Virus record (IMG/VR): IMGVR_UViG_3300027804_002812
Coordinates: 1 to 64,000 of that record
From: a virus
Taxonomy: Duplodnaviria; Caudoviricetes
Strand: one strand, 5' to 3'
DNA length: 64,000 bases
Positions within the stretch are counted from its first letter, which is position 1; each line of letters begins with the position of its first letter. Positions 1 through 32,736 of the stretch are shown piece by piece. The notes below the pieces were generated by a model. That model saw nothing but the letters and a program-made list of their open reading frames with translations. It ran no database searches and was not told where the DNA came from. A program made the translations under genes and the position numbers.

Positions 1-576
1 AGGTACAACCATCGCATTAGCAGGATTAAAGTTGTCATACGGTCCATAAACGTTTGCAGGTCTAACTATTGATATCCTATCCCACCCGTATTGTTTTTTA
101 TAGGTTTCAGTTTGTAATTCTCCAATTCTTTTCGCCCACCCCGCGTACATGTCGTTCGGAGAAGGAAATGTCCCCCAAACACTTTCTTCATAAAAAATTT
201 CAGACGGAGCATAAACTCCAACTGAACTTGTGAACAAATACCATTTGACATCAGATTCAAATGCCGCTTGAGTCATGTTAGTATTGAACTGTAACATTGG
301 GACCATAAAATCAACTGGTTGATTCATACACATATGTGGAGACCCTTTGACACCCGCTAAATGGAAAACATAATCTTGTCCCTTACATACTTCCAAACAA
401 CTATTAAAATTTCTCAAGTCAGTCTTGACAAAATTAACATTGAAGGGTAAATGTTCTGGCTCTGTCAAATCCGCGATAGTGACTTTGGCCCCTTTTAATA
501 CTAACTTTTTAACAAGTTGCCTCCCAATCATTCCGGCTCCACCTGTTACTAATACTTTTTGGTTATTAAACATCAT
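1..576 (-). CDS. NAD(P)-dependent epimerase/reductase, GDP-fucose-synthase (Fcl/ColC)-like extended SDR; partial, runs off left edge
   Basis: Not in the ORF track; translated by hand from ATG at 576: MMFNNQKVLVTGGAGMIGRQLV...HLAGVKG...FTSSVGVYAP...YAGWAKRIGE...IVRPANVYGPYDNFNPANAMVVP, open to base 1. GGxGxxG Rossmann motif and RPxNxYGPxDNF motif. Confidence 0.88.
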   Translation of the reverse strand, partial: MMFNNQKVLVTGGAGMIGRQLVKKLVLKGAKVTIADLTEPEHLPFNVNFVKTDLRNFNSCLEVCKGQDYVFHLAGVKGSPHMCMNQPVDFMVPMLQFNTNMTQAAFESDVKWYLFTSSVGVYAPSEIFYEESVWGTFPSPNDMYAGWAKRIGELQTETYKKQYGWDRISIVRPANVYGPYDNFNPANAMVVP

Positions 577-11333: not shown

Positions 11334-12344
11334 TTAGTCCCTTAATGTTTCAGTCGTTACACAATGAAAAGATCCACCCAAAGTTCTTGAGTGTCTGATC
11401 TTACAATCTAATGTATCTATATTATATTTTTTTAATTCTTTAATTAGTTCTGTTTGTCTATTGTCTAATATAACCGTGTTTTCGTCAATAGAAAGTAAAT
11501 TAATACCAACCCAAACAGAAGCTCGTTCGACTTTGTGGTAACCAATATCCACCATTTCAGGTGACCATATTTTATCCCAAGATTTCAACATCTCAGGCAT
11601 GTTTTTCTCATTTATCCTTGCAGGATTTAGAAGACATAGACCCTCTCTTAACAAAGCTATAGTAGAATCCAAATGAGAGTACGAATACATGTTTTCTAAC
11701 ACGTGTACTTTGTATTCTGACCCCAATAAATTTTGAAGCCATTTCGCTCCCAACTTATTCCCTGTATTACTCACCAGATACAGGATATCATTATTCGACC
11801 GTAAAATATTTGCAGCGTCGAATACAGGCTCTTTTTCAGTTAATGTTAACTTAGATAAATCTTTTCTTTGGTATGAATCATCCTTTAACATTGGTTTAGG
11901 TGCAGCAACCCATCTCGCCCCTTGTTCCATATACTGTATGAAATCTTCCCTAAAACAATATGTTTCGAATTGACGAGACCTCAAAGTCATTGGCGCCTCT
12001 ATGATTGTATCACCAATTACAGTTACAGTGTCTCTTGGACAAAAGGTATAGTATTGGTCTGTTTCCCAAAATCCATTACTTATTGTTGAAGTTGTGTCGA
12101 TTGATTTTGGTCTTTTAACATTTACCCCACATTCGTTTAGGATTTGAGATAAAGACTCTAAATCTTCTCGAGTTTCTTCATAAACTTTTTCATCAAAAAA
12201 ACCTAACTCTTTTGAAGGTATTATATCTTTGTCAGCATAGTTAATAGCATGAAGATCAACTCCATGTTTTGGCATATTTGCATTATCTATCGTACCAACG
12301 AAAACTTCTCTTAATTTACCCCATTCATTTTTAACTGATACCAT
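11334..12344 (-). CDS. Amidinotransferase, inosamine-phosphate amidinotransferase (StrB1)-like
   Basis: VSVKNEWGKLREVFVG, FCPRD, PMTLRSR, EPVFDAAN, LVSNTGNKLGAKWLQ, HLDSTI, HSRTLGGSFHC (catalytic Asp/His/Cys). Confidence 0.9.
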   Translation of the reverse strand: MVSVKNEWGKLREVFVGTIDNANMPKHGVDLHAINYADKDIIPSKELGFFDEKVYEETREDLESLSQILNECGVNVKRPKSIDTTSTISNGFWETDQYYTFCPRDTVTVIGDTIIEAPMTLRSRQFETYCFREDFIQYMEQGARWVAAPKPMLKDDSYQRKDLSKLTLTEKEPVFDAANILRSNNDILYLVSNTGNKLGAKWLQNLLGSEYKVHVLENMYSYSHLDSTIALLREGLCLLNPARINEKNMPEMLKSWDKIWSPEMVDIGYHKVERASVWVGINLLSIDENTVILDNRQTELIKELKKYNIDTLDCKIRHSRTLGGSFHCVTTETLRD

Positions 12345-15988: not shown

Positions 15989-17437
15989 TTATTTGTTATA
16001 ATTATCCTTATCTGAAATGTATTCACCTGGTTCATAATGTGTGATTCGTCCATCTGTAACTCTCACATCAGGTATGGTTTCATCAATTTCAATCGAATTA
16101 TACCAATCCTCTAATTCAGGAAAAGTTTCAACAAAACTTTTATTTCTTCTTTTATCATATTGTGTATAAAAACTTTTGAAATCGTGAAATTGCATTTGCA
16201 TGTCAGTTTCAGTTGTATTGTGTCCACGGTTAACTACCTCGATGTAATCAACTAATCTTTGAATTTGAGCACCTTCATACATGTTAATCAATGGGTTCTT
16301 TTTATTTTTTCTCCACCACATTGATAATTTACCGTGTAAATCATGTTTAACATCATCAGGTAACGTCAAAGGTGACATAAATGCCGGCCATCTAAGAATG
16401 TTGAAGTCCACAATAGGTTTGTTCCATCCATACTTAGCCTTTAGTGTTAACATATCATCCAAGAATTCAGTGATACTAAACAGACATAAACTATTAATTG
16501 TCATCATAATCACAACTTGTCTCACGTTACCTTTCTCAATGACTTGAACCAAATTGTTTCTCCACACTTCGTAGTTCAAACCATCTCTGATGTATTCTGC
16601 GTGTGCTCCATATGATTCATTACTAGTATAAATGTCAAATTCTTTAACATCAATTTCATTTGTTACGTTTATCAACTTATCAATAAATTCTTGACTGACA
16701 CCTAAATTAGAATTAATAGCAACTCTTAGGTTTGGTGATGGATATTTTTTTACTTCTTCCATAAACTGCCAGAAATTATGACTCATGGTAGGTTCTCCTC
16801 CAGTAACTCTAATCTCTTGTAATGTTTTTGTTAGTTCTGGCCACCACTCTAAGAATGCCGACACATATGGATTATTTTCATTGTGTTTACCATAGATTTC
16901 AGACCAAGATCCATCAGCATAATATGCCCCTGCACTTGTGGTCTTGAACTTTTGATAAGCTCCATTCTTTTTGATGTCTTTACCCCAAGTTGTTGAATAA
17001 CCTGAATTACAGTATGAACACGCAAAGTTACAGGTACGATCGAAACTAACTTCAATAGTTTTTGGGGTAATGTCTGCATCCCAAGGAAAGTCTTTCAATG
17101 CCGCAATTTCTTCTTCAGTGTAAATTTGACTTTTATATACACGGTCAGAAATATTATTTCGACCAATATCTTCAATCTTCCAACAATATGAACATTCTGC
17201 AGGTTTAGTACCTTCCAACATCATTTTTCTAATTTCTTTTTTGAAATCAGTATTATGTAATGCGGATGGATTTGTTTTGATTTTTTCTAAATCAATAGGA
17301 TGGGGTAATGGAAGATGACATGAATTTGTAAACCCATGACCTAAATGTAAACTGACGTTATACCATTTTGCGGCACAAAAGCTACAACTTACGGAATTTA
17401 GGTTTTTATCTCTCCAATTTGCTAATTGCTCTGACAT
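15989..17437 (-). CDS. Radical SAM protein with N-terminal twitch (half-SPASM) domain
   Basis: N-terminal CSFCAAKW...NSCHLP...CSYCW precedes the CNFACSYC radical SAM motif; TGGEP. Confidence 0.88.
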   Translation of the reverse strand: MSEQLANWRDKNLNSVSCSFCAAKWYNVSLHLGHGFTNSCHLPLPHPIDLEKIKTNPSALHNTDFKKEIRKMMLEGTKPAECSYCWKIEDIGRNNISDRVYKSQIYTEEEIAALKDFPWDADITPKTIEVSFDRTCNFACSYCNSGYSTTWGKDIKKNGAYQKFKTTSAGAYYADGSWSEIYGKHNENNPYVSAFLEWWPELTKTLQEIRVTGGEPTMSHNFWQFMEEVKKYPSPNLRVAINSNLGVSQEFIDKLINVTNEIDVKEFDIYTSNESYGAHAEYIRDGLNYEVWRNNLVQVIEKGNVRQVVIMMTINSLCLFSITEFLDDMLTLKAKYGWNKPIVDFNILRWPAFMSPLTLPDDVKHDLHGKLSMWWRKNKKNPLINMYEGAQIQRLVDYIEVVNRGHNTTETDMQMQFHDFKSFYTQYDKRRNKSFVETFPELEDWYNSIEIDETIPDVRVTDGRITHYEPGEYISDKDNYNK

Positions 17438-17444
17438 TCTTGTT

Positions 17445-18158
17445 TTATTTGATTAATTCTAAAAAATTCTTATTACTGGATTCATCGTAAATTATACCCA
17501 AATTATTTGATATATTAAAGTCATAGTAACATAACAAATTTGTATAGGTATTATAAGATGGAAACTTGAAAGTCTCTGTATTAACATATTCCTTAACACT
17601 ATGAATATCCGAAATGTTTTCCAAAATAAAAAACAACCTGATATCCATTTCTCCGTGCCATTTGTTTTCTGGAGAATTATCAGATGAGTTACTTGAACAT
17701 CCTAAATATAATGCAGTGTCTCGGTACTTTTCGCATAAATTTCCTTCGAAACCTTGGGAACCAACTTCTTCTAAATTTTTGTAAATTATGAATTTGTTTT
17801 TATTTCGTATAATAGTCACTGATATACCCTTTTCTAACTCATCTCTCAGAAGAGGTATAGTTATACTTTGATTATTTTGGCCTTTAATCCTATAAATAAA
17901 AAACAAATGATTGTTAATCTTATTATAAACTAAACCAATATTTTTACTCGGTTTCCCGAATAACATAAAGTGTTCGTCTAAAACAAAATCTTCTTCGATT
18001 CTGAAATCAATATGGATTGTAAATTCATCATTGTAAAAAAACTCATCAAAAGTATCGTTAAGTTTTTTATTGTATTGTGTAACATATTGGTCATCTGGGT
18101 GTTCTTCGATTTCCCATTTGAATTTCATCCAATACGGTTGTTTATAATTTATTTTCAT
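17445..18158 (-). CDS. Stand-alone LamG/concanavalin-A-like jelly-roll protein
   Basis: FTIHIDF, VTII..FIIYKN, LYLGCSS, WHGEMD, LLCYYDFN, IYDES; paralogous to the N-terminus of 18142..20262 (MKIxYxxP start). Confidence 0.6.
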   Translation of the reverse strand: MKINYKQPYWMKFKWEIEEHPDDQYVTQYNKKLNDTFDEFFYNDEFTIHIDFRIEEDFVLDEHFMLFGKPSKNIGLVYNKINNHLFFIYRIKGQNNQSITIPLLRDELEKGISVTIIRNKNKFIIYKNLEEVGSQGFEGNLCEKYRDTALYLGCSSNSSDNSPENKWHGEMDIRLFFILENISDIHSVKEYVNTETFKFPSYNTYTNLLCYYDFNISNNLGIIYDESSNKNFLELIK

Positions 18159-20262
18159 TACTAATTTCTTCGAAAAATGATTTTAGTTCAGGGTAATATT
18201 CTTCAACTTTCAAACCTCTACGTGATTCGTATTGTTTAACAAAGTTATAAAGATCGAGTTTATGTTGATACAAATCATTATCATGTAATTTCTTGTCTGA
18301 AATGAATATGTCTCTTAGTCTCGACACTTTTTCTATTTCTTGAGTTGAAAATCCAACATCCTCAACGTTCTGCATTTGATGGAAATTCAAACTTCGATAT
18401 GTTGAATTGAACTTCATGTACTTTATCCATCTATCAAAATAATCTTGCGTTATATAATCTTTCAAGATTCTAAAACTCATAAACGATGGTTGTCTTAAAT
18501 AAGATGTATCTAATATAATTGCAGAACTCCAATATCTCAGAGGATTAAAGTGTTTAACTTTGAACTCATGAACTTTTCTAATTAATGATTCGTATGAAAA
18601 AACACTAAAAATATTAAAAGTAGACATGATTACTACCGTAACTTTGGGTAATGCAGTTAATACTTTATCTATATTGTTAAATAATTTTTCAAAATTCATC
18701 CCATATCTTGTATACTCAGATTGAATTCCATACCCATCACAAGATGTGAAAATAACAATTTCTTTTACTAAATCATTCTCGATAATTTTATTCAATTTAT
18801 CTATTAATTTATCTATCAAATTATCGGGAACTCCAAGATTACTATTTATGGAAAGTTTAAGATTTTGGTTTGGTTGTTCTGTTTCCAAAATGAAATCCAA
18901 TACTTTCCAAGTATCTTTAGATAATAGTGGTTCTCCACCAGTAATTCTAAATGTATCCATACTTTTATAAAGTTCGGGAAACCATTCCCAAAAACTATTA
19001 ACGTATGGGTTATCCTCAGAATGTTTGTATGGCTTAGTATTACGTTCTTCCATACGTCTTGTACCATTGTATTCAAATGAAAGTTGGTAAGGGCCGTGGT
19101 CATTAATTTCTTCCATCCATTTTGAAGAATATTCAGGTCCACAATACGCACATTTGAAATTACAGGTGTTAGAAAAACTAACTTCTACGTATTTTGGATT
19201 GTAATTATCCCTCCAATCTGACTTAGAAACTTCTTCGAAAAAAGGTTCTGACCAAGGTTCGGAAGATTTGAAAACTCTATCTGAAAATGAGTTTGAATTA
19301 TCTTCAACATTCCAACAATAGGAACATTCTGAAGGTCTCTCATTTTCCAACATTTGTTTACGAGCAAGTTTTTTAACTTTACTATTGTGTAAAGCAGTAG
19401 GATTACGAGACAACTCTTCTAAAGTTACCTTATGAGGTTCAGGATGGTGACAAGAGTGAGTTGTTCCATTATGTAAGTGCATTGTGACTTGTGTCCATTT
19501 CGCAAGACAAAATCCACAACCTACGGAGTCCAACTTTTTCTTGTTTGCTTCGAATTGATTAGTTGATATTTTATCTTTTTCTTTATCTTTTGAAAGTTTC
19601 AAATTAAACAAATAGAACTTATCCTTGAATTCATCTTTTATGGTACATTCTTCCCCCAAATTGTCTCTCAAGTCAAAAGCACACAATAAATTATTTGTAA
19701 TCAACTCTTGGTCAATACTCATTCTTGTTACAAATTTTTTAATCTGTTGCATAGTTAATACAGTATCGAATATGGAAAAATGATAAACATCCATTTCAGT
19801 CATACTTCTATGCATCATAACATCTGAGTCCATGTTATGGCAACCAATAAAAAAGTTTTTATCTGCGTAATCATTAATCAAGTCATACTTTGTATCAATA
19901 GTATCAACTAGTTTGTAATTGAAATACAAATTAAATTGGTTGTTGGCATACGTTAGGGTTATGTTTGCTTCATTGTCATACATACCGTCCTTTACAGTAT
20001 TGTAGGTATAACAGTTGTGAATTGAATTACCGTCCTCACCTTTGGTCCAAAATTCAAAAACGAATAAATCTACTTCGTAGTCATAACTTACACCAAAATT
20101 TTTTCCAGGGACACCGAAAAATCCAATTTTTTCATCTCGAGCAAAATATCTACCAACCCTGAAAGATAAACTTATTGTATATTCTTTTTTTAGAATTAAA
20201 TTAGTTTGTTCCTCACCAGAATTAACCTTTAGGTACCAAGGTTTTTCATATTCTATTTTCAT
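18142..20262 (-). CDS. Fusion: LamG-like domain + N-terminal-twitch radical SAM enzyme
   Basis: N-terminal YTISLSF, ITLTYANNQFNLYFN, FFIGCHN, LLCAFDL; then CGFCLAKW...HSCHHP...CSYCW, CNFKCAYC, TGGEP. Confidence 0.85.
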   Translation of the reverse strand: MKIEYEKPWYLKVNSGEEQTNLILKKEYTISLSFRVGRYFARDEKIGFFGVPGKNFGVSYDYEVDLFVFEFWTKGEDGNSIHNCYTYNTVKDGMYDNEANITLTYANNQFNLYFNYKLVDTIDTKYDLINDYADKNFFIGCHNMDSDVMMHRSMTEMDVYHFSIFDTVLTMQQIKKFVTRMSIDQELITNNLLCAFDLRDNLGEECTIKDEFKDKFYLFNLKLSKDKEKDKISTNQFEANKKKLDSVGCGFCLAKWTQVTMHLHNGTTHSCHHPEPHKVTLEELSRNPTALHNSKVKKLARKQMLENERPSECSYCWNVEDNSNSFSDRVFKSSEPWSEPFFEEVSKSDWRDNYNPKYVEVSFSNTCNFKCAYCGPEYSSKWMEEINDHGPYQLSFEYNGTRRMEERNTKPYKHSEDNPYVNSFWEWFPELYKSMDTFRITGGEPLLSKDTWKVLDFILETEQPNQNLKLSINSNLGVPDNLIDKLIDKLNKIIENDLVKEIVIFTSCDGYGIQSEYTRYGMNFEKLFNNIDKVLTALPKVTVVIMSTFNIFSVFSYESLIRKVHEFKVKHFNPLRYWSSAIILDTSYLRQPSFMSFRILKDYITQDYFDRWIKYMKFNSTYRSLNFHQMQNVEDVGFSTQEIEKVSRLRDIFISDKKLHDNDLYQHKLDLYNFVKQYESRRGLKVEEYYPELKSFFEEISNENKL

Positions 20263-21686
20263 TACTTCATTATTACATTTATAAACCTTGTATTCGGATA
20301 TAATGATTCGTCAATATTAACCAACTCAGTCACATCTAATATTTTATTATAACCTTCTTCTTTATAATTAATTTTATTCTGTTGCATTTCAGTTACAAAT
20401 CTTTTTTCATTTCTTGCGGTGGTATCACCTTTTGCCCATTTTCCATTTACAAATCCTTCATCTTCATGATAGATACAATCAAAAGAACCCTCTCTTCTAT
20501 ATGGTAAAATTAAATCTTTTACTTCAATATCTTCATTTACAAAGATAGTATTATTATTATAAAATTCATAATTATTGACAATGTCTTTATCTGAAGCATC
20601 AAAATTATAGTGAAGTACTAAACCACTTTTATCTTCGAAAATAGTGTTTATGTCATCAACAAATTTATCATAAACCTTAACTTCAGCAATTTTACCCTTC
20701 AAAAAAACACCAGTATGAGAACACACTCCCATAAGGATAGGTTTGATTGAATCATGAGCCTTCAACTTTTTTTCGATGTGTAATGGTATATGTTCTTTAA
20801 CTCCATTCATATTGTAGTTCAATTCATCATTGACATATAGATAATAATTCCCGTTTTCAGAGTCATATGTTACTGTGACCCACGTCCATTCATTCTCAAA
20901 TCTTTTTGCATAATTGTAATGATGATTACTGTCCCTATCATATACTATTGAAGAAATAGCTCTTGAATTATTGAAGGAAAGTCCCCAATTGTAACTTCCA
21001 TCTTTTCTTATTAATGGATACTCAATGAATTTTCGTTCTTCGTCTCCAACCAACCAAATTGGGACTTTATCAGGTTGTTGGTCAGCACTGAATAATATTG
21101 ATATAGTATGGTCTTGATGTAAACAAGAACTTATTTCTCTATTAACGTTGAATGCCAAATATGAATCATTTCCATTAAATTGTGCAACCTTCCTATTTTG
21201 ATGTTTTTCGAAAACTTTGTAAGTTGTCAATCCTTCAAAATACGCCCTCCAAAATAAATCGTCATCTTCTTGGCCCCAATCCCAATAGTCATTTGAATAC
21301 CCATTTGTTTTCAAAACTTGGTCTTTGGTGAAAAGAATTATCCCACCAAAATATTGTTCATAACCTAACTTATATCCATATTTGGATAGTTTGGTTGCAA
21401 TATGGACAGGGAACTCATCGGGGTAAGAATAGTCACAAGTGTCATCATGAGGAACCATGTCAACATCATGCCAAGCAATGTAATCACAACCGTCTTCGAA
21501 GGCATGATATGCTGCAATATTTTTCATTGCACCTCTATTAAACAACTTATCATCCACTTGATGTCCTACATAAAATTTATGAGGGATTCCCTTGTTCTTT
21601 AAGTGTTCAGTTAGACGAGGTATTAATTCCTCTATATGTTCTTTTCTATTTCTGTATGGTATACAGATTCCTAATTTTGGTTTCAT
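20262..21686 (-). CDS. GT7 (beta-1,4-galactosyltransferase-like) with an inserted LamG domain
   Basis: IPYRNR, AWHDVD, YFGGI, GYSNDYWDWGQEDDDL; LamG insert (FNGNDSY, WVTVTYD, LYVND, LKGKIAEVKVY, LHYNFD); GT resumes PYRREGSFDCIYHE. Confidence 0.85.
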   Translation of the reverse strand: MKPKLGICIPYRNRKEHIEELIPRLTEHLKNKGIPHKFYVGHQVDDKLFNRGAMKNIAAYHAFEDGCDYIAWHDVDMVPHDDTCDYSYPDEFPVHIATKLSKYGYKLGYEQYFGGIILFTKDQVLKTNGYSNDYWDWGQEDDDLFWRAYFEGLTTYKVFEKHQNRKVAQFNGNDSYLAFNVNREISSCLHQDHTISILFSADQQPDKVPIWLVGDEERKFIEYPLIRKDGSYNWGLSFNNSRAISSIVYDRDSNHHYNYAKRFENEWTWVTVTYDSENGNYYLYVNDELNYNMNGVKEHIPLHIEKKLKAHDSIKPILMGVCSHTGVFLKGKIAEVKVYDKFVDDINTIFEDKSGLVLHYNFDASDKDIVNNYEFYNNNTIFVNEDIEVKDLILPYRREGSFDCIYHEDEGFVNGKWAKGDTTARNEKRFVTEMQQNKINYKEEGYNKILDVTELVNIDESLYPNTRFINVIMK

Positions 21687-23128
21687 ATTCCTACTGTTAC
21701 GTGTATAACATTATCAACGGTTTCTTTACCATATTCTTTGAATTTACATGTAGAAAGCCCGTCACTTTCAAATTTAGCTCCGTTAGTTAAAACTTCGTTA
21801 TGATATCTTAATTGATTAAATCTAGTTGTTTGATTTTTCCACCCTCCGTCTTCATATCCATTTTCTTCGTGTGGTAGTAATTTGAAAGTGGATTCTCTAC
21901 GATAAGGCACTTTTATTTCTTTATGTTCATCGAAGGTATATCCAACAATTTCACAATTGTAAATCCATCCATTATTCCCCTTTTCACTTAAATCTATTAA
22001 TTGATACCCCTTAATAAATTTAGCATCATAATATAACACTAATTTATAATCTGATTTGTAATCACCAAAATTCTGGGTTAATCCAAAAAATTGGTTTTTG
22101 GAAATCTCCTCAATTTCACCTTCTCCTAAGATATCGTTATAAACTGCAAAAGAACTAATTGACCCTTTGAAATAGTTATTATCCTTTTCTCTGTGCGGAT
22201 TTCCGCACCCTAAATAAAAATGTGGCTCTTGTGAGTAATCATAAAAAGTACCCACTCTCTTGGTATCAACCAATTTTCCATTTTGATATAATGAAAAAAA
22301 CTTTTCTTCTCTATCTATAGTAACGGTAATGTTTGTCTTGAAATTTGGCAAGATATCACTGTGAATAAACACAACTTTTTTATTTTCTGTAAACATTTGA
22401 AATGTATACCTTCTATATGAGTTATATGTTATTGTACAGTCATATCCCGGTATTGAAAATACCGACATAATATCTTCACCTTTGTCCTTATCCAACTCTA
22501 AATCATCAGGGTTGAATGAAACGAATATCGTGATTTTTCCATTTGGATTGTAACTTGTCTGATTGATGAAATCGAATATATTAGCGGACTTAACATAGGC
22601 ATTTTTACCATTGAACTTCAATGCTGCAGTGTTACCTCCATCTAATTTTAATAGTTTAGTGTTTAATGGAATATCAAAATATTCACACCTATGTAATAAA
22701 TCATCATCTTCGTACCCCCACCCCCAATAGTTATTTGAATACCCATTTACCTTTTCAAATAAGTGTATTGGAAATAGTGTAACTCCTCCGAAATATTGGT
22801 CAAACACAATTCTATTGAAATCTTCTGTACCTATCAGATTGGTTGCCAAATGAAGTGGAACATCACTGTAGGAATAATCTACTTCTTCAGGTAACATGTC
22901 CAAGTCATGAAAAACGACATAGTCACATCCAAGTTTCTTCGCATAAATCGTACCGATATTTAATAATTTACCACGATTGAAACTTTTTTCATCATCTTGT
23001 TCCACAATAATTAGATAATAATTAATACCAGAATCGGAAAGATGTTTTGTAATATGGCTTTTGAATTCAACCAAATCAAAATATCTATCCCGATAGGGCA
23101 CAATTATTCCTAACTTGTGATTATTCAT
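21683..23128 (-). CDS. GT7 (beta-1,4-galactosyltransferase-like) with an inserted LamG domain, tandem paralog
   Basis: IVPYRDR, FNRGKLLN, FHDLDM, YFGGV, NNYWGWGYEDDDL; LamG insert (LKFNGKNAYV, LYQNGKLV, YFKGSISSFAVY, LYYD); resumes PYRRESTFKLLPHE. Confidence 0.85.
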   Translation of the reverse strand: MNNHKLGIIVPYRDRYFDLVEFKSHITKHLSDSGINYYLIIVEQDDEKSFNRGKLLNIGTIYAKKLGCDYVVFHDLDMLPEEVDYSYSDVPLHLATNLIGTEDFNRIVFDQYFGGVTLFPIHLFEKVNGYSNNYWGWGYEDDDLLHRCEYFDIPLNTKLLKLDGGNTAALKFNGKNAYVKSANIFDFINQTSYNPNGKITIFVSFNPDDLELDKDKGEDIMSVFSIPGYDCTITYNSYRRYTFQMFTENKKVVFIHSDILPNFKTNITVTIDREEKFFSLYQNGKLVDTKRVGTFYDYSQEPHFYLGCGNPHREKDNNYFKGSISSFAVYNDILGEGEIEEISKNQFFGLTQNFGDYKSDYKLVLYYDAKFIKGYQLIDLSEKGNNGWIYNCEIVGYTFDEHKEIKVPYRRESTFKLLPHEENGYEDGGWKNQTTRFNQLRYHNEVLTNGAKFESDGLSTCKFKEYGKETVDNVIHVTVGI

Positions 23129-23324
23129 CTATGGTAGGATCTTTAGGTTGAACTGTTTTATGCCATTCCGCTAAGTAAAATTGAATACGGTCGCTCCACT
23201 CTTGTTTTTCAATTTCTTCAACCCAAACAGTTAACGCGTCCAATGTGTTTGCTATTTTCTCTAAGGCTTTGACTTTTCGTTGCTCAAGCAACATTTTTTC
23301 TTTTTCTTTATCTAATTCTGTCAT
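23121..23324 (-). CDS. Small hypothetical protein (helical/coiled-coil)
   Basis: 67-aa ORF filling the gap with overlaps at both ends; no family motif recognised. Confidence 0.6.
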   Translation of the reverse strand: MTELDKEKEKMLLEQRKVKALEKIANTLDALTVWVEEIEKQEWSDRIQFYLAEWHKTVQPKDPTIDE

Positions 23325-24178
23325 ATCAAAACTATTTTTTTAATTAAATTATTCCATTTCCTATATCTTTTGAATTCATCAATCCCTGAGGATTCTTCAA
23401 TCATAAATTCTTCATTATTCAAATCTATCAAAAAATTTGATTTTTCCAACTCTTGATACATTTTCATGTACTCTTCTGAATATGAATATTCTTTATTAGT
23501 GTCAGCAACTCTTTTAATTCTTTCAATTGAAGTAATATCCCATTTGAAGTGGTGGACTTGTACTGAATGAGTATCAATCGGTGCTATCAAAGGATTCCCC
23601 CAACCTTGCCATTTCCAAGTGGTATATCCATCCACTTTCGCATAGTGTTGACCATTGGTTAATGTAACCCATCCTCTCGTAATACAAACTTTATTTGGAC
23701 AAGCTTGACTCATTGGATACCTAAAAAATCCCATGACAGGAAATTGTTTCCAAATACGTTCATCTTCTTTAATCTCAGGAAATGTACCTCCACTACCTAT
23801 TCTATCTATGAATCCTCCTCTAACAATATCCCATCCATTTACTTCACAATCCAAAATTAACTTTTGAATGTTGTCATGAGGATATAAGTGAAACTCATCT
23901 ATGTCTGCAACAACCCACCAACCATTTTTGTCTTTCGATTTTACTTCATTGTATAAGTTAGTTACCATCTCCCAATCAAAATTGTGATGACGAACTTCTT
24001 TAACAACATGGACATTATTGTATCCTGAAATAATACTTTTTACCTCTTCACTAATGTTCGGATGTAAATCTGAGTTATAACACGCGATATGAATCTCGCT
24101 TACATATTTTTGGTAATGTTTTATAAAGTGGGGTAATAAATTAACCCCGTGACCAATAACTGTTACTAATTTTATCAT
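23321..24178 (-). CDS. GT-A-fold glycosyltransferase (GT2-like/GT92-like)
   Basis: LLPHFIKHY, WWVVADIDEF (DxD), VHHFKW; start at 24178 gives an ATGA overlap. Confidence 0.65.
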   Translation of the reverse strand: MIKLVTVIGHGVNLLPHFIKHYQKYVSEIHIACYNSDLHPNISEEVKSIISGYNNVHVVKEVRHHNFDWEMVTNLYNEVKSKDKNGWWVVADIDEFHLYPHDNIQKLILDCEVNGWDIVRGGFIDRIGSGGTFPEIKEDERIWKQFPVMGFFRYPMSQACPNKVCITRGWVTLTNGQHYAKVDGYTTWKWQGWGNPLIAPIDTHSVQVHHFKWDITSIERIKRVADTNKEYSYSEEYMKMYQELEKSNFLIDLNNEEFMIEESSGIDEFKRYRKWNNLIKKIVLI

Positions 24179-25164
24179 TTTTTCCAAAAACTATAAATCC
24201 CTTTATTCAATTCATAATCACTCCACACAAATCTTTCTCGTTTCGGTTGTTTTTTAGCCCATTCCCACATCTGACTTAACCCATCATATAATGAAGTTTT
24301 ATCAGAAAATCCCAAAAGGTCGATAGATTTTTGATATGTTGGATGAGCGTTTTTTACCTCATGTCTTTTTTCTTTATAGACCACTTCACCATCTTGGATA
24401 ACTTCTCTTAAAACTTTGTTAGCGTCATTAATTGTATAATATTTTGTACCTCCTAAATTGATAATCTCTTTGGAACAATTCTCTTGTTGGGATGATTTCC
24501 ACAAGCCCTCCAAACAATCATCAATGTAACTGAACGCCCTTTTTTGTTCGCCATCTCCAAATATAGTCATCGGTTCACCATTCAGATGTTGATACATCCA
24601 TATACCTAATACGTTTCTGTATTTATCCCAAATGTTTTGTTTGATACCATAAAAATTGTGAGGTCGAATGATACACCAATCTAAACCATGTTGTTCACCG
24701 GCAACCTTAATATCCATTTCACAGGCATATTTTGCAATACCATATGGATCTATAGGATTTTGTTGGTCGTCTTCGTGGAAAGGTGGAGTCCCATGGCCAT
24801 ATACCGCCATAGTAGATGAAAAAATGAGTCGTTTTACATTATGTTTAATACACTCATTTACTATGTTTGCAGTTGAAATGAGGTTATTTTCATAATTATA
24901 TTTCCTAATAAATGGAGATAGTCCTTCAGCAGCATAAGCCGCAAAATGGTATACATAATCAGGTTTGGTTTCTTCAAAAATATCTGATAGTTTATCAGAT
25001 TTACAATCAACATTAAAAAATTTAACGTCAGGGTTAACATTTTCAATGTATCCCCCACTTAAATTATCAACACCTATTAGTTCAACATTAGGTTTGTTTT
25101 CAACAATCCAATCAGCGAGTCTTGAACCTAAAAGTCCTGCAACTCCTGTTATTAATATTTTCAT
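24175..25164 (-). CDS. NAD-dependent epimerase/dehydratase (UDP-glucose 4-epimerase-like SDR)
   Basis: ITGVAGLLG, VDNLSGG, HFAAYAAE, FSSTMAVYG, PYGIAK (YxxxK), RPHNFYG. Confidence 0.9.
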   Translation of the reverse strand: MKILITGVAGLLGSRLADWIVENKPNVELIGVDNLSGGYIENVNPDVKFFNVDCKSDKLSDIFEETKPDYVYHFAAYAAEGLSPFIRKYNYENNLISTANIVNECIKHNVKRLIFSSTMAVYGHGTPPFHEDDQQNPIDPYGIAKYACEMDIKVAGEQHGLDWCIIRPHNFYGIKQNIWDKYRNVLGIWMYQHLNGEPMTIFGDGEQKRAFSYIDDCLEGLWKSSQQENCSKEIINLGGTKYYTINDANKVLREVIQDGEVVYKEKRHEVKNAHPTYQKSIDLLGFSDKTSLYDGLSQMWEWAKKQPKRERFVWSDYELNKGIYSFWKK

Positions 25165-25170
25165 ATATTA

Positions 25171-25896
25171 TTATTTCCTATTTATTATGGTAATACCACT
25201 TGATGATGGTTTATCCATTAATATACGGAAATTATGTAACTTTATCAAGTTCCACTCGGGACTTTGTTCCAACTCTTTAACTAACCTTGAAGGTCCGTCA
25301 AACGGATGATAATCTTTTTTTGCCTCTTCAGAAACAATCAGAGTTTTCTCATAATTCTCATCTGTATCATGTAAAACTATAACACCTTTTTCACTCAAAA
25401 GTTTCGAGTACAAATCGAAATCTTTCTTAACCCCTTCATACGAGTGGTCTCCATCAATAAATAAAAAATCAATTTTAATATCTTGTCGAACAAAAAAATT
25501 ATAATATGCATCTTCAGAAGTTGATTTAATTAATCTAGGATGAAAATTTTTTCTAAAAAAAGAATCTTCATCATCAACATCGGTTGGGCCACCAACACCG
25601 TTACAAGCGTCAACCAAATAGGTAACGCCAATATTCCCCCAATTATAATCAGGGTTACCTTCAAATATTTTTTGATTGTGTAAATCAACTCTTGCTTGAG
25701 TCATTATTCTTGGTATGAATCCTCCACCCGAACCAATACAAACACACACTTTAGCCCTAATCTGTTGTATTAAAGAATATACTACCATCCCATCTCCCAT
25801 GTGTAAATCAGTCGCACCGTGAGTCCACAGATATGGCACCAACTCCCCATCATTAGTAGTTATAAATTTTTCTATAAAGTCTCGATTGGTAATCAT
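25171..25896 (-). CDS. Class I SAM-dependent methyltransferase (Methyltransf_24-like)
   Basis: CIGSGGGF, IDFLFIDGDHSYEGVKKDF, GVIVLHD. Confidence 0.8.
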   Translation of the reverse strand: MITNRDFIEKFITTNDGELVPYLWTHGATDLHMGDGMVVYSLIQQIRAKVCVCIGSGGGFIPRIMTQARVDLHNQKIFEGNPDYNWGNIGVTYLVDACNGVGGPTDVDDEDSFFRKNFHPRLIKSTSEDAYYNFFVRQDIKIDFLFIDGDHSYEGVKKDFDLYSKLLSEKGVIVLHDTDENYEKTLIVSEEAKKDYHPFDGPSRLVKELEQSPEWNLIKLHNFRILMDKPSSSGITIINRK

Positions 25897-27615: not shown

Positions 27616-30600
27616 TTATTTTTTTATTATATTTTTTAGTTCATCGATTTGAACTTGTTGTTCTTTAACACATTCTATTAAAAGTGCTACAATTCTATCA
27701 TATTTAACCGCTAAATAACCGTTTTCTCTTCTTTTAACAATTTCAGGTAGTACTTTTTCAACTTCTTGTGCAATTACCCCAATATCGTGACCTTCATTTT
27801 CGTGTATTCCTTCCATAGGAATCCAATCATATTCATATCCACCAATTTGAGATATTTTTGTAATTGGATTAACAATTGGTGTAACATTTTCTTTTAATCT
27901 ACTATCGGAACTGTAAAATGCAATAACATCGTTTGTCGCTCTAATTAAACCAGTAGTAGTTGGTGTTGCAGTTCCTACACCAAGTGCTCCGTTGATATAT
28001 GCCGTTGTACCGTCAAATGTAAAGTTAACCTCTCCATTAATAGTCCCAGCAGTTCCTGTTGCGGTTAGAACATAATTGTTTGTATTATTGTTAATTGTTC
28101 CTAAACCTGAACTACCACTTGATCCTGATGTTCCACTAGATCCTGAGGTACCATTTGTCCCTGATGAACCACTAGATCCTGAAGTACCTGATGAACCACT
28201 TGACCCTGAAGTACCTGATGATCCACTAGATCCAGATGTACCACTAGATCCTGAGGTACCATTTGTCCCTGATGAACCACTAGATCCTGAAGTACCTGAA
28301 GAACCACTAGAACCTGAGGTACCTGATGAACCACTAGATCCTGATGTTCCACTAGACCCTGAAGTTCCGTTTGTTCCTGAAGTTCCATTTGTACCTGATG
28401 AACCAGACGTTCCTGATGAACCAGACGTTCCACTAGACCCAGATGTTCCTGATGAACCACTAGATCCTGATGTTCCACTAGACCCTGAAGTACCTGAAGT
28501 TCCGTCTGTTCCTGATGAACCACTTGTTCCAGATGAACCAGATGTTCCTGATGAACCAGACGTTCCACTAGACCCAGATGTTCCTGATGAACCACTAGAA
28601 CCTGATGTTCCACTAGACCCTGAAGTACCTGAAGTTCCATCTGTTCCAGATGAACCACTTGTTCCAGATGAACCGCTTGACCCTGAAGTACCTGAAGAAC
28701 CACTAGAACCTGAGGTACCTGATGAACCACTAGACCCAGAAGTACCACTAGATCCTGATGTACCATCTGTACCTGAGGAACCACTAGAACCAGATGTTCC
28801 ACTAGAACCAGATGTTCCACTAGAACCAGATGTTCCACTAGAACCAGATGTTCCACTAGAACCAGATGTTCCACTAGATCCGGAAGTTCCAGAAGTTCCA
28901 TCTGTTCCTGAAGAACCTGACGTTCCTGATGAACCTGACGTTCCTGATGAACCTGACGTTCCACTAGATCCTGAAGTTCCTGAAGTTCCACTTGTACCTG
29001 ATGTTCCTGAAGTTCCACTTGTACCACTTGTACCTGAAGTTCCACTTGTACCACTAGTCCCTGAAGTACCACTAGTCCCTGAAGTACCACTTGTTCCGGA
29101 AGTTCCACTTGTACCACTTGTACCATCTGTACCACTTGTACCATCTGTACCACTTGTGCCATCTGTACCACTTGTTCCTGATGTACCACTTGTTCCTGAT
29201 GTACCACTTGTTCCTGAAGTTCCACTTGTTCCTGAAGTTCCGCTTGTTCCACTAGTTCCAGATGTTCCACTAGTTCCAGATGTTCCATCAGTTCCACTTG
29301 TTCCTGAAGTTCCAGATGTTCCACTAGTTCCAGATGTTCCACTAGTTCCTGAGGTTCCACTAGTTCCTGAGGTTCCTGAGGTACCTGATGTTCCACTAGT
29401 TCCTGATGTTCCATCAGTTCCTGAAGTTCCACTTGTTCCTGATGTACCACTAGTCCCTGAGGTTCCTGATGTACCAGAAGTACCACTTGTCCCTGACGTA
29501 CCGTCAGTTCCTGATGAACCTGAAGATCCAGACGTACCATTTACAATACCCAACGTGGTCTGTGCGTAGGAGTAATGTATTGAACCTTCAGTTGCTAAGG
29601 TAACTGTTCCTGTGACACTTCCTGTGTTTGTTGCTCGTACCTTAACAAGTATTTGGTCTGAAACTGTAATCGTATATCCAGTTTGGAATGCATCGGAAAT
29701 TTCCATTATAAACGTCGGTGAATCCGATAGTATTGGTGTCGGGTCTGATGCGAATAAAAACGTTTCGGTACCTCCACTTGTTCTTTTATACACCTCACAG
29801 AATATGTCAAAAGATGTACTAACACTTGATTTATAACTATGTAAGAAGAATTGCCATATTCCAGCAGGAATTGCAGTAACACCCGGAAAACCTGTATCTG
29901 TTAAAAATGACTGTATTGTATCTGTTCCACCAGATGCAATTGATGGCGACGTTATAGTTTGTTCACCTGTATCCGTTGGAATAATCGAAAACTCTTTATA
30001 TGGCCCTGACGTAATTGACTCATTGAAATAGTATATTGCTCCTCCCGAGACTCCATTTACTCCTGATGTTCCACTCGTACCTGATGTACCAGACGTTCCA
30101 CTAGTCCCTGAAGTACCACTTGTTCCATCAGTTCCACTAGTCCCTGAAGTACCACTAGTTCCGGAAGTTCCGCTAGTACCCGATGTACCACTAGTCCCAC
30201 TAGTTCCTGATGTTCCACTAGTCCCTGAAGTACCGCTTGTTCCATCAGTTCCTGAGGTTCCACTTGTTCCTGATGTACCACTAGTTCCTGAGGTTCCTGA
30301 GGTACCTGATGTTCCACTAGTTCCTGATGTTCCACTAGTCCCTGAAGTACCGCTTGTTCCATCAGTTCCTGATGTTCCACTAGTTCCTGATGTTCCACTA
30401 GTTCCTGATGTTCCACTAGTTCCTGATGTTCCACTAGTTCCTGATGTTCCACTAGTCCCTGAAGTGCCACTTGTTCCATCAGTACCACTAGTTCCTGATG
30501 TACCACTAGTTCCTGATGTTCCACTAGTTCCCGATGTACCGCTAGTACCACTAGTCCCAGATGTTCCATCAGTACCACTAGTTCCTGATGTACCACTAGT

Positions 30601-32736
30601 TCCTGATGTTCCACTAGTTCCCGATGTTCCACTAGTTCCAGATGTTCCACTAGTTCCAGATGTACCGCTTGTTCCATCAGTTCCACTTGTTCCTGATGTT
30701 CCGCTAGTACCTGAAGTTCCTGATGTACCATCAGTTCCACTAGTTCCTGATGTTCCGCTAGTACCTGAAGTACCACTAGTACCCGATGTTCCACTAGTAC
30801 CTGAAGTACCACTTGTTCCTGAAGTGCCACTAGTTCCTGAAGTACCATCTGTCCCACTTGTTCCTGAAGTTCCACTTGTACCTGATGTTCCTGAAGTTCC
30901 ACTCGTACCTGATGTTCCAGACGTACCACTTGTGCCACTTGTTCCTGAAGTACCACTTGTACCACTTGTTCCTGAAGTTCCACTTGTTCCTGATGTTCCA
31001 CTTGTTCCTGAAGTTCCACTTGTACCACTTGTACCATCTGTACCACTTGTACCATCTGTACCACTTGTACCATCTGTACCACTTGTACCATCTGTACCAC
31101 TTGTTCCTGAAGTCCCACTTGTTCCTGAAGTCCCACTTGTTCCTGAAGTCCCACTTGTTCCAGATGTACCACTTGTTCCAGATGTACCATCTGTACCACT
31201 AGTCCCTGAAGTACCACTTGTTCCTGATGTACCACTTGTTCCTGATGTACCACTTGTTCCTGAAGTTCCACTTGTTCCTGAAGTTCCGCTTGTTCCAGAT
31301 GTACCATCTGTACCACTAGTTCCTGAAGTACCACTAGTCCCTGAAGTACCACTAGTCCCTGAAGTACCACTTGTTCCTGAAGTTCCACTTGTTCCTGAAG
31401 TTCCACTTGTTCCTGAAGTTCCACTTGTTCCAGATGTACCATCAGTTCCACTTGTCCCAGATGTACCCGAAGTACCACTTGTACCTGATGTTCCACTTGT
31501 ACCTGACGTACCACTTGTCCCTGATGTACCACTCGTACCTGATGTTCCGCTTGTCCCATCCGTACCTGATGTGCCACTAGTACCTGATGTGCCACTAGTT
31601 CCTGATGTGCCACTTGTTCCAGAAGTACCTGATGTACCACTAGTGCCTGATGTTCCACTAGTGCCTGATGTACCATCAGTTCCTGAAGTACCATTTGTTC
31701 CTGAGGTTCCATTCGTACCCGATGTTCCATCTGTACCACTAGACCCTGAAGTACCACTAGATCCTGAGGTACCACTTGTTCCAGATGTTCCTGAAGTACC
31801 GCTAGTCCCTGATGTACCACTAGTACCATTTGTTCCTGAGGTTCCATCCGTACCCGATGTTCCATCTGTGCCACTAGACCCTGAAGTACCACTAGATCCT
31901 GAAGTTCCGCTAGTACCTGAAGTTCCTGATGTCCCACTTGTTCCCGATGTTCCATCAGTTCCAGATGTTCCGTTAGTACCTGAGGTACCATTTGTTCCTG
32001 AAGTACCATTTGTTCCACTAGACCCTGAAGTACCACTAGATCCTGAAGTTCCGCTAGTACCTGAAGTTCCTGATGTCCCACTTGTTCCTGATGTTCCATC
32101 AGTTCCAGAAGTACCATTTGTACCAGCAGACCCTGAAGTACCAGATTGGCCTATAATGTTAAAAATAAATTGTGTATTCGCAGGAATTGAACCCGCACCA
32201 CCAGCAGCAACTTGAAATACTTCGTAATCTTCATAATTAGGATAAGTTGGTGAAACTGCCGTAATTCTTAATAATTTGAAAAATGATGGATTGTCTACTC
32301 TAACTAATTTGATTGTAGTACCAACAGTTAATGTATTTAATAAACTCGAAAAATCTTGCGCAGGACTAAACGCAGTATCACTTATTGTAATTCCTGTTGT
32401 AGTCAATGAAAAATCGTCACCAGTATTTAGTGCAAAGTATCCTGTACCAGGATTTGACATAACAGTAGACCCTGTAAACCTCCAAACGGCAATATTACCT
32501 TCTAATCCGGATGTTCCTGATGACCCACTTGAACCTGATGACCCACTTGACCCCGAAGACCCACTTGAACCTGACGTACCACTTGTACCCCCTGAAATGC
32601 TTGCAGTTAAGGATGAAAAAGCTATTTGACCTGAGGTTCCTGAGGTTCCTCCCGTAAAATTTGTAACAATATATAGTCTATCATTCGAGGTCGCGGCGGA
32701 GACTATAGGTAAATCAGTTATTCTAGTGTTTGACAT
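27616..32736 (-). CDS. Gly-Thr-Ser (Gly-X-Y) repeat tail-fibre-like protein with C-terminal peptidase S74 intramolecular chaperone
   Basis: Two long arrays with Gly at every third residue, three non-repeat domains, C-terminal SSDSRLKENV...DIGVIAQEVEKVLPEIV...LAVKYDRIVALLIECVKE. Confidence 0.85.
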   Translation of the reverse strand: MSNTRITDLPIVSAATSNDRLYIVTNFTGGTSGTSGQIAFSSLTASISGGTSGTSGSSGSSGSSGSSGSSGSSGTSGLEGNIAVWRFTGSTVMSNPGTGYFALNTGDDFSLTTTGITISDTAFSPAQDFSSLLNTLTVGTTIKLVRVDNPSFFKLLRITAVSPTYPNYEDYEVFQVAAGGAGSIPANTQFIFNIIGQSGTSGSAGTNGTSGTDGTSGTSGTSGTSGTSGTSGSSGTSGSSGTNGTSGTNGTSGTNGTSGTDGTSGTSGTSGTSGTSGTSGSSGTSGSSGTDGTSGTDGTSGTNGTSGTSGTSGTSGTSGTSGTSGSSGTSGSSGTDGTSGTNGTSGTNGTSGTDGTSGTSGTSGTSGTSGTSGTSGTSGTSGTSGTSGTSGTDGTSGTSGTSGTSGTSGTSGTSGTSGTSGTSGTSGTSGTDGTSGTSGTSGTSGTSGTSGTSGTSGTSGTSGTSGTSGTSGTSGTDGTSGTSGTSGTSGTSGTSGTSGTSGTSGTSGTSGTSGTDGTSGTSGTSGTSGTSGTSGTSGTSGTSGTSGTDGTSGTDGTSGTDGTSGTDGTSGTSGTSGTSGTSGTSGTSGTSGTSGTSGTSGTSGTSGTSGTSGTSGTSGTSGTSGTSGTDGTSGTSGTSGTSGTSGTSGTSGTSGTSGTSGTSGTSGTDGTSGTSGTSGTSGTSGTDGTSGTSGTSGTSGTSGTSGTSGTSGTSGTSGTSGTDGTSGTSGTSGTSGTSGTSGTSGTSGTSGTDGTSGTSGTSGTSGTSGTSGTSGTSGTSGTSGTSGTSGTDGTSGTSGTSGTSGTSGTSGTSGTSGTSGTSGTSGTSGTDGTSGTSGTSGTSGTSGTSGTSGTSGTSGTSGTSGTSGTDGTSGTSGTSGTSGTSGTSGTSGVNGVSGGAIYYFNESITSGPYKEFSIIPTDTGEQTITSPSIASGGTDTIQSFLTDTGFPGVTAIPAGIWQFFLHSYKSSVSTSFDIFCEVYKRTSGGTETFLFASDPTPILSDSPTFIMEISDAFQTGYTITVSDQILVKVRATNTGSVTGTVTLATEGSIHYSYAQTTLGIVNGTSGSSGSSGTDGTSGTSGTSGTSGTSGTSGTSGTSGTSGTDGTSGTSGTSGTSGTSGTSGTSGTSGTSGTSGTSGTSGTSGTDGTSGTSGTSGTSGTSGTSGTSGTSGTSGTSGTSGTSGTSGTDGTSGTDGTSGTDGTSGTSGTSGTSGTSGTSGTSGTSGTSGTSGTSGTSGTSGTSGTSGTSGTSGSSGTSGSSGTSGSSGTSGSSGTDGTSGTSGSSGTSGSSGTSGSSGTSGSSGTSGSSGTSGSSGSSGTDGTSGSSGTSGSSGSSGTSGSSGSSGTSGSSGSSGTSGSSGTDGTSGTSGSSGTSGSSGSSGTSGSSGTSGSSGTSGSSGTSGSSGTDGTSGTSGSSGTSGSSGSSGTSGSSGTSGSSGTSGSSGTNGTSGTNGTSGSSGTSGSSGSSGTSGSSGSSGTSGSSGSSGTNGTSGSSGTSGSSGSSGTSGSSGSSGTSGSSGSSGTNGTSGSSGTSGSSGSSGLGTINNNTNNYVLTATGTAGTINGEVNFTFDGTTAYINGALGVGTATPTTTGLIRATNDVIAFYSSDSRLKENVTPIVNPITKISQIGGYEYDWIPMEGIHENEGHDIGVIAQEVEKVLPEIVKRRENGYLAVKYDRIVALLIECVKEQQVQIDELKNIIKK
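28106..29545 (-). repeat. GTS/GSS/GTD/GTN triplet array 2 (9/18-bp coding repeats, about 160 triplets)
   Basis: Direct reading of degenerate gttcctgaa/gtaccacta-type units; boundaries approximate. Confidence 0.9.
30058..32148 (-). repeat. GTS/GTD/GTN triplet array 1 (about 230 triplets)
   Basis: Direct reading; includes a 144-bp higher-order duplication near 31871-32088; boundaries approximate. Confidence 0.9.

Follow-up and report, generated by a model that had tools for sequence, protein, structure and literature searches.

A LamG domain nested in the predicted catalytic domain of paired GT7 glycosyltransferases of an uncultured jumbo phage

The window analysed here – the whole stretch of 64,000 nucleotides that opens the IMG/VR virus record IMGVR_UViG_3300027804_002812 – encodes on its minus strand two adjacent proteins that are predicted to be glycosyltransferases (GTs) of family GT7, each with a laminin G-like (LamG) jelly-roll domain nested within its catalytic domain. 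That the pair combines this nested architecture with GT7 catalysis is, judging from sequence profiles and structural models, close to certain. The architecture itself is genuine and widespread among uncultured phages, and no description of it turned up in the papers searched. As for function, the explanation that we hold as a whole, with somewhat more confidence than doubt, is that the two enzymes act within a conserved gene cassette, that LamG would dock the acceptor and that a glycan on a virion fibre would be the most likely substrate.

The GT7 pair and its nested domain

GT7-B (protein P0002, 481 residues; minus strand, 21683..23128) and GT7-A (protein P0001, 474 residues; minus strand, 20262..21686) both resemble β-1,4-galactosyltransferases (B4GalTs) and are 30% identical to one another along their full length (BLASTP E 2e-47). 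The start of GT7-A overlaps the stop of GT7-B by ATGA – as read from the sequence – and its stop in turn overlaps by 1 nt (TAATG) the start of a radical S-adenosylmethionine (SAM) enzyme gene; the overlapping gene ends suggest that the translation of GT7-B and GT7-A is coupled. A preliminary description of the region 20262–23128 had already recognised the two open reading frames (ORFs) as paralogues with a full LamG domain inside the catalytic domain of each, and had placed the insert between the small-loop/EDDD helix and the segment carrying the metal-binding His and the lid. The Pfam matches, profile alignments and predicted structures presented below agree with it on all these points.

Both proteins exceed the curated gathering cutoffs of the three Pfam families concerned (27 bits for GT7N, 23 for GT7C and 27.6 for Laminin_G_3): the two scores are 58.9 and 62.3 bits for GT7N, 69.9 and 56.4 bits for GT7C, and 30.7 and 36.1 bits for Laminin_G_3. 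The Glyco_transf_7C match is partial, covering profile positions 2–64 of 78 in P0001 and 16–56 in P0002, and neither protein has a family in PHROGs or NCBIfam. In a phmmer search of PDB chains with P0001 as the query, the N-terminal ~155–165 residues matched B4GalT7 and B4GalT1 (E ~1e-30). The C-terminal 84 residues alone, searched as a profile against PDB sequences, retrieved no B4GalT chain, the best match being to unrelated proteins at E 0.15; the assignment of this piece to GT7 therefore draws on the profile of short GT7 proteins and on structural alignment, rather than on a sequence profile against the PDB.

The profile in question is a hidden Markov model (HMM) of 26 uninserted GT7 proteins of 205–240 residues, recovered by a representative search. 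It matches the long, inserted forms in two collinear pieces – positions 2 to ~156 before the insert and ~152–217 after it – and does so in all 8 long forms tested, as well as in 4 sequences from metagenome-assembled genomes (MAGs). This two-piece test was used instead of a global MAFFT alignment of long and short forms, which put the C-termini of the short forms on the start of the insert. In P0002, HMM positions 2–159 correspond to residues 4–162 and positions 153–217 to residues 409–479; in P0001, the two pieces are residues 3–176 and 396–449. The insertion point thus lies at about position 153 of the uninserted core.

Together with conservation among orthologues, these matches divide GT7-B into an N-terminal catalytic part (residues 1–157; 22658..23128), with the motifs PYRDR, FNRG, HDLDM (the DxD motif) and YFGG and the GWGYEDDD helix, the nested LamG insert (residues ~158–408; 21905..22657) and a C-terminal catalytic part (residues 409–481 plus the stop codon; 21683..21904), with RRxxxFxLLPH, the putative metal ligand His420, the lid at 423–431 and a DGL...VGI end. 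The GT7-A insert spans residues ~158–395 (20502..21215). At ~251 residues in P0002 and ~238 in P0001, the inserts are longer than the ~200 residues first estimated; the jelly-roll itself occupies roughly residues 165–400, and the Laminin_G_3 match falls at 196–339 in P0002 and at 172–341 in P0001.

AlphaFold2 models built on the orthologue alignments – predictions, not experimental structures – were compared with known structures by VIA-align. The model of P0002 has a predicted local distance difference test score (pLDDT) of 83.5 and a predicted template modelling score (pTM) of 0.74, that of P0001 a pLDDT of 88.5 and a pTM of 0.86. Both align end to end with bovine B4GalT1 (1tvy_A, chain residues 177/178 to 398/399): P0002 with Z 26.5 and a root-mean-square deviation (rmsd) of 2.2 Å over 215 aligned residues (model 1..481), and P0001 with Z 28.1 and an rmsd of 1.8 Å, likewise over 215 residues (model 1..474). 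An end-to-end structural alignment was also obtained between each model and B4GalT7. Foldseek local alignments reach no further than the first ~157 residues, as expected for an interrupted fold. In these predictions, as the preliminary description had supposed, the insert breaks into the GT fold rather than sitting outside it. Predicted as a complex, P0002 and P0001 scored 0.00 in a run without controls, which speaks neither for nor against their binding.

The uninserted proteins indicate where the break occurs. Their order is a helix, a short strand (consensus "lkverk") and then "kgkylslkHe"; in P0002 the first strand, I152–K157, is followed by the insert, and the core picks up again at R410–R411...F415...H420. 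Profiles and models alike place the insert in the turn that separates the strand following the WGxEDDD helix from the one that runs into the metal-binding His and the lid. The equivalent point in bovine B4GalT1 is, we assume, the turn at ~335–337, some ten residues ahead of Met344/His347, which we take to be the hinge of the long flexible loop 345–365. In the P0002 model, residues 423–431, right after the His, are the sole stretch with a pLDDT below 50, which is consistent with a mobile lid.

The insert itself qualifies as a Laminin_G_3/concanavalin-like lectin domain, both by its profile score and by its predicted jelly-roll fold. That of P0002 (model ~163–400) aligns with the LamG domain of PAPP-A, with BACOVA_03559 and with pentraxins at Z 20–21, and that of P0001 (~163–390) with PAPP-A and pentraxins at Z 17–20. 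The two inserts are homologous to one another (hhalign probability 99.7%, E 5.5e-27). Compared with four orthologues of ~86% identity, the P0002 insert shows a non-synonymous rate (pN) of 0.05–0.07 against a synonymous rate (pS) of 0.67–0.80, a constraint at least equal to that of the catalytic parts; such strong purifying selection indicates that the insert is functional and selectively maintained.

The two proteins have the profile match, the GT-A fold and the motifs of GT7, while the contiguous catalytic domain that also defines the family is absent. On profile and model evidence, they are best described as a variant of GT7 rather than as canonical members, with LamG interrupting the core and no membrane anchor of the animal type.

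Catalytic motifs and solubility

P0002 carries HDLDM, GWGYEDDD, PYRRESTF..LLPHE (with His420) and TTRFNQ, and P0001 carries HDVDM, DWGQEDDD, PYRREGSF..IYHE and TTARNE; both paralogues retain H-D-x-D, YFGG, W-G-x-E-D-D-D and the distal His. Of the signatures that the preliminary description had given for the pair, PYRRExxF...HE...RN/RF does follow the insert in both proteins, whereas GWGxEDDD holds for P0002 and not, in its first residue, for P0001. Across 25 B-type and 18 A-type relatives the motif residues, with the exception of the His, are invariant or nearly so. Asp75, Asp77, Trp137, Glu140 and Asp141 are invariant among the GT7-B orthologues, and Pro408 and His420 in both orthologue alignments, in which Arg410 and Arg411 are at least 90% conserved. 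The assignment of roles to these residues is based on the phmmer alignment to B4GalT and on established knowledge of that family.

Two deep A-type metagenomic representatives from other genomes, P0183 and P0236, have Ile or Pro at the position of the metal-binding His and may be pseudo-enzymes of other lineages. For the present genome such a reading was rejected, all catalytic motifs being kept in both copies.

The Tyr of the phage YFGG motif aligns with the Tyr of YFGG in B4GalT1, presumably Tyr289, the residue that disfavours N-acetylgalactosamine (GalNAc) donors; because it is kept, the donor sugar is probably galactose (Gal)-like rather than GalNAc. A crude Kyte–Doolittle scan found no hydrophobic 19-residue segment above the threshold of 1.0 set for the pair, in either P0001 or P0002, and for want of such a segment the two appear to be soluble, unlike the GT7 enzymes of the Golgi. 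The picture predicted by sequence and model is that of soluble, catalytically intact, metal-dependent inverting GT7 enzymes of the β-1,4-galactosyltransferase type.

Distribution and origin

A word-indexed search returned 2173 proteins, the best 120 of which are all 374–483 residues long (most of them 463–483) and lie on contigs of up to 334 kb; nearly all of these 120 have the three Pfam domains together. An exhaustive search of representatives returned 4720 proteins at E ≤1e-3, and among the top 150 representatives (clusters at 50% identity) at least 51 have an insert of 180–300 residues at the same site, while 58 are contiguous. Relatives are encoded by at least 548 stretches of IMG/VR, and in the ESM Atlas dozens of clusters of at least 50 members show the same combination of domains, every one of them with a viral label. 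The collection of deposited phages yielded no match, either to P0002 by tblastn or to the 2.9-kb DNA of the pair; sequence and Foldseek searches of the PDB yielded no GT7 structure with an insert; and the literature search yielded no description of GT7 joined to LamG, of a phage GT7 or of a twitch radical SAM enzyme with a phage GT. The preliminary description, which knew of no such architecture among characterised GT7s, had allowed that it might already be both common and characterised: common in metagenomes it proved to be, but no characterisation was found in the PDB or in print.

In a tree of the N-terminal core, the inserted forms make up three groups, namely an A clade of 20 rows with an SH-aLRT support of 95, a B cluster and one further cluster, and uninserted forms intermingle with them. 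The tree implies 6 changes of label, compared with 37 when labels are shuffled, and its starred branches force at least 3; some of the "contiguous" calls inside inserted clades are probably misclassified. The alignment is too short for this tree to decide between one and several origins of the insertion.

Within the genomes of GTDB, most full-length matches are in MAG contigs, one of which (L007) holds the phage cassette described below and another (G003) a tandem B–A pair. A Spirochaetaceae MAG, by contrast with these, has a single GT7–LamG protein of 500 residues, with the same insertion site and intact motifs, on the 196-kb contig CAZWKE010000001.1 (L011:5977-7479), which also bears pyrG (CTP synthase), rpoN (sigma-54), holA, glnA, CopA and OppA. 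This copy is clearly cellular and lies on a bacterial chromosome, and the design is not restricted to phages. Its neighbours include a Wzt-like ATPase of an ATP-binding cassette (ABC) transporter, GT4 and GT2 enzymes, an FkbM methyltransferase and a radical SAM enzyme, so that the gene content looks like that of an ABC-transporter-dependent polysaccharide pathway. In a second MAG ("bacterium bin_47"), a GT7–LamG protein (L009:5941-7431) lies beside a GT2 fusion and a fused ABC exporter. The flanks of that locus encode a leucine-rich repeat (LRR)-protein kinase and a 1353-residue SNF2 helicase, and the contig could belong to a symbiont, a giant virus or a bacterium.

Source genome and gene cassette

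CheckV rates the 326,291-bp record, of which the window forms the first 64 kb, as complete. The record represents an uncultured, aquatic, tailed jumbo phage that encodes a baseplate wedge protein, ribonucleotide reductase (RNR), a DnaB-like helicase, UvsX and a single-stranded DNA-binding protein (SSB). Cultured relatives are distant, the baseplate wedge protein being 26–28% identical to those of Flavobacterium and Microcystis phages. The moraphages, described in a recent study (PMC12619734, 2025), are jumbo phages from aquatic habitats whose genomes reach 307 kb; Bacteroidota are their predicted hosts, and the study mentions, in generic terms, four core orthogroups of glycosyltransferases. 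The 326-kb genome might belong in or near that lineage.

The GT7 pair is part of a cassette, situated in the strand block of virion genes, whose order – a Methyltransf_24 methyltransferase, a GT2-like protein, GT7-B, GT7-A and then one or more N-terminal-twitch (N-twitch) radical SAM enzymes – recurs across 80 related IMG/VR phage loci and is matched by the present window. Both paralogues occur, B then A, in 73 of the 80 loci, and most of the others break off ahead of the second copy or contain no more than a short fragment of it. The GT2_4-like protein (~283 residues) is found in 77 loci, the methyltransferase in 73 and a radical SAM enzyme after the pair in 73–74. The order recurs, with three GT7–LamG paralogues, on a distant marine contig; in a distant relative (L083), small ORFs of 106 and 76 residues lie between the GT7 paralogues.

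In the window, where all cassette genes are on the minus strand, the methyltransferase (241 residues, 25171..25896; Pfam E 7e-13) is followed by a GalE-like epimerase of the short-chain dehydrogenase/reductase (SDR) type, two genes upstream of GT7-B (24175–25164; TIGR01179 E 3e-31, below cutoff). A homologue of the latter occurs in 15 of the 80 loci, and it is possibly a local supplier of a 4-epimerised hexose bound to uridine diphosphate (UDP). Next comes the GT2_4-like protein (288 residues, 23321..24187; Pfam Glyco_tranf_2_4 E 1.6e-5, just below cutoff), and a small ORF of ~64 residues (MTELDKEKEK..., 23130–23324) fills the gap between it and GT7-B, its stop overlapping the GT7-B start. Downstream of the pair lie a 706-residue protein in which LamG is fused to an N-twitch radical SAM enzyme (18142..20262; NF033640 N_Twi_rSAM E 4e-93 at residues 251–697), a free-standing LamG protein of 237 residues (17445..18158), related to the fused LamG by BLASTP (E 4e-17) and hhalign, and a second N-twitch radical SAM enzyme of 482 residues (15989..17437; NF033640 E 2.4e-91). 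Related phages have from 1 to 5 copies of the radical SAM gene, encoding forms without LamG (~460–520 residues), with one LamG (~700 residues) and longer ones (~860–940 residues).

By hhalign, the free and fused LamG modules match one another with a probability of 100% (E 8e-47), and either of them matches the GT7 inserts with a probability of 95–97% (E 2e-11 to 3e-8). At the level of profile comparison, the four modules – two GT7 inserts, one fused and one free – are thus homologous. All four end in an L-x-L-x-(Y/F)-D strand followed by a Gly/Asn-rich turn (P0002, ~360–395; P0298:190–225; the C-terminus of P0299). Typical Laminin_G_3 domains have such a strand at their N-terminal start, and the module is possibly circularly permuted.

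Around the cassette extends a 27-kb sugar cluster of 26 minus-strand ORFs (window positions 1–27037). It encodes DegT-family enzymes, several SDR epimerases/dehydratases, a UDP-glucose (Glc)-dehydrogenase-like enzyme, GT25-like and Anp1/GT2-like transferases, DUF5672 and GDSL proteins; the ORF at 11334–12344 matched no Pfam family. On the minus strand as well, 4.5 kb upstream of the GT7 pair, is a gene for a fibre-like protein of 1706 residues (27616..32736), which we consider a candidate acceptor. Its translation consists for the most part of ~390 collagen-like triplets (Gly-Thr-Ser, Gly-Ser-Ser and Gly-Thr-Asp), arranged in two proline-free tracts around a globular domain, and ends in an SDSRLKEN-type (S74 chaperone-like) C-terminal domain; the triplet repeats account for an island of 44–47% GC at 28–32 kb.

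Proposed function and alternatives

Each GT7 enzyme would transfer one hexose from a UDP-sugar, the two acting at different steps of the same growing glycan. The nested LamG would serve as a built-in docking or lectin module beside the lid, holding a macromolecular acceptor, or already modified neighbouring units of it, at the active site; towards this role as an acceptor-docking module we lean slightly. It is plausible, as the preliminary description had proposed, that a LamG domain at the acceptor site gives processivity or selects the acceptor. The related LamG modules fused to, or encoded beside, the radical SAM enzymes suggest that the whole enzyme set could dock on one common substrate. 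This would most likely be a glycan borne by the product of the nearby upstream gene, which is Ser/Thr-rich and resembles a tail fibre; that protein would be assembled in the cytoplasm, where anchorless enzymes would also sit. Taken by itself, the identification of the virion fibre as the acceptor is tentative and, we think, somewhat doubtful.

The choice of acceptor turns on two sets of observations, the rival idea being that the cassette builds or remodels a polysaccharide – a host O-antigen, a capsule or a surface glycan directed by the phage – with LamG holding a lipid-linked chain, a reading that we judge rather unlikely. Among the 26 ORFs of the sugar cluster there is no family match to an ABC transporter, a Wzx/Wzy flippase or polymerase or a priming phosphoglycosyltransferase, nor does any of them show more than one hydrophobic segment in the crude Kyte–Doolittle scan, as a polytopic membrane protein would; the cluster, going by its genes, looks entirely cytoplasmic. 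The cassette, moreover, lies beside a fibre gene in most loci. Since the C-terminus of the fibre found no BLASTP match in the 80 loci, composition was compared instead, in the 42 distinct loci with enough upstream sequence: 36 of them have a same-strand upstream ORF of at least 500 residues with a Ser plus Thr (S+T) fraction of at least 0.22, and the median maximum S+T is 0.29 for upstream ORFs as against a median of 0.11 (95th percentile 0.14) for downstream ones. The lack of an export or priming match, the soluble enzymes and the constant Ser/Thr-rich neighbour are the reasons why a virion-protein glycan is favoured. On the other side stands the Spirochaetaceae chromosomal protein, with the same insertion site and in what appears to be an ABC-transporter polysaccharide locus, which points to a glycan chain rather than a protein as the acceptor, at least in that bacterium; the second MAG locus, with its GT2 and ABC exporter, adds to this, and the sugar clusters of jumbo phages are usually read as modifiers of surface polysaccharides (PMC7824862). 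Several further points count against the fibre or against a shared docking role. That two genes adjoin in a phage late region says little about whether one encodes the substrate of the other's product. A high Ser/Thr content is common among tail fibres in any case. Gly-X-Y runs occur in an upstream ORF at only 14 of the 42 distinct loci, so that a collagen-like acceptor cannot be general, and with pairwise E-values of 3e-4 to 3e-5 the LamG parts of the four genes are distant homologues, whose likeness may reflect a common fold family and nothing closer.

Two other accounts concern what LamG does and what is glycosylated. The domain might be a specifier or regulator in the manner of α-lactalbumin on B4GalT1, packing against the closed lid and reshaping the acceptor pocket or stabilising the lid, or else an oligomerisation module. 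The insert does leave the core a few residues ahead of the lid's Met/His hinge, confidence in the P0002 model is lowest at the lid (423–431) and the high pTM suggests a fixed packing of the domains; homologous LamG modules, however, also occur on the mechanistically unrelated radical SAM enzymes and free in the operon, which shared docking explains better, and we regard this account as improbable. More improbable still, to our minds, is that the GT7 enzymes glycosylate a small molecule, such as a natural product of the aminocyclitol or aminosugar type made by the same cluster. The DegT-family enzymes, SDR epimerases/dehydratases and UDP-Glc-dehydrogenase-like gene that would speak for it are equally typical of nucleotide-sugar tailoring, most of the tailoring genes are left out of the conserved core cassette, and a 240-residue lectin-like domain common to four enzymes suggests a macromolecular substrate.

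A bolder form of the docking and fibre-glycan explanation, argued by analogy and in our view unlikely, would make the cassette a device devoted to the dense O-glycosylation of Ser/Thr-rich fibres made by the phage itself: LamG would read the repeat or its modified neighbours, as the lectin domains of GalNAc-transferases do, the paralogues would add successive sugars processively along the fibre, the radical SAM enzymes that bear LamG would dock there too, and a collagen helix that has no proline would be stabilised or shielded by the glycan.

Whatever the acceptor, GT7 appears here in a phage, as a soluble enzyme whose fold houses a lectin-like domain beside the lid that controls acceptor binding. 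With its abundance in aquatic phage metagenomes and its place in the same cassette with radical SAM enzymes, the design probably marks a widespread, unstudied glycan pathway of large phages. If the fibre is indeed the acceptor, there would be a bearing on host recognition, particle stability and the evasion of immunity or defence. Nature supplies the inserted and uninserted enzymes in pairs, which makes them well suited to a clean study of how a nested module affects glycosyltransferase specificity. The chromosomal bacterial copy, the profile-level link between four LamG modules and the (Gly-Thr-Ser)n candidate acceptor are what the present analysis adds.

Comparison with known systems

The closest functional parallel to a GT equipped with a lectin is found in the polypeptide GalNAc-transferases (ppGalNAc-Ts) of family GT27, in which a C-terminal ricin-type lectin binds glycosylated sites and steers the dense O-glycosylation of Ser/Thr-rich repeats. 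The parallel is one of function and not of homology: those enzymes belong to another GT family, and their lectin is a β-trefoil that is C-terminal rather than nested. The phage proteins, being GT7 plus LamG and not GT27 plus ricin β-trefoil, fall outside that group.

For the class of target there is a precedent in mycobacteriophages, whose GTs glycosylate capsid and tail-tube proteins (Freeman et al. 2023, Cell Host Microbe, as cited in PMC12619734). As that citation presents it, this is a cytoplasmic decoration of structural proteins, albeit in a different phage lineage. We know of no nested lectin domain or radical SAM partner in the mycobacteriophage systems.

As for the catalytic domain, GT7 is known mainly as a family of the animal Golgi. 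Animal B4GalT1 and B4GalT7 (PDB 1TVY, 1O0R, 1NF5, 4IRQ and 3LW6) share the GT-A fold with the phage proteins over ~215 residues at 1.8–2.2 Å (Z 26–28), and, at ~30% identity, have in common with them H-D-x-D, YFGG, W-G-x-E-D-D-D, the distal His and a lid after this His. They differ in that the animal enzymes have a contiguous catalytic domain, with ~45 extra residues at its N-terminus, preceded by an N-terminal membrane anchor and a stem, whereas the phage proteins are anchorless and have a LamG domain of 240–250 residues nested ahead of the His strand. The short GT7 proteins of bacteria and metagenomes (~215–230 residues) have the same minimal core, collinear with the phage proteins on both sides of the insertion point, but no insert. 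The insert, in turn, shares its jelly-roll with the LamG domain of PAPP-A, PTX3, CRP and BACOVA_03559 (Z 17–21, ~185–200 aligned residues) at an identity of only 13–18%; unlike the PAPP-A LamG and pentraxin modules, the phage LamG is embedded in the fold of an enzyme.

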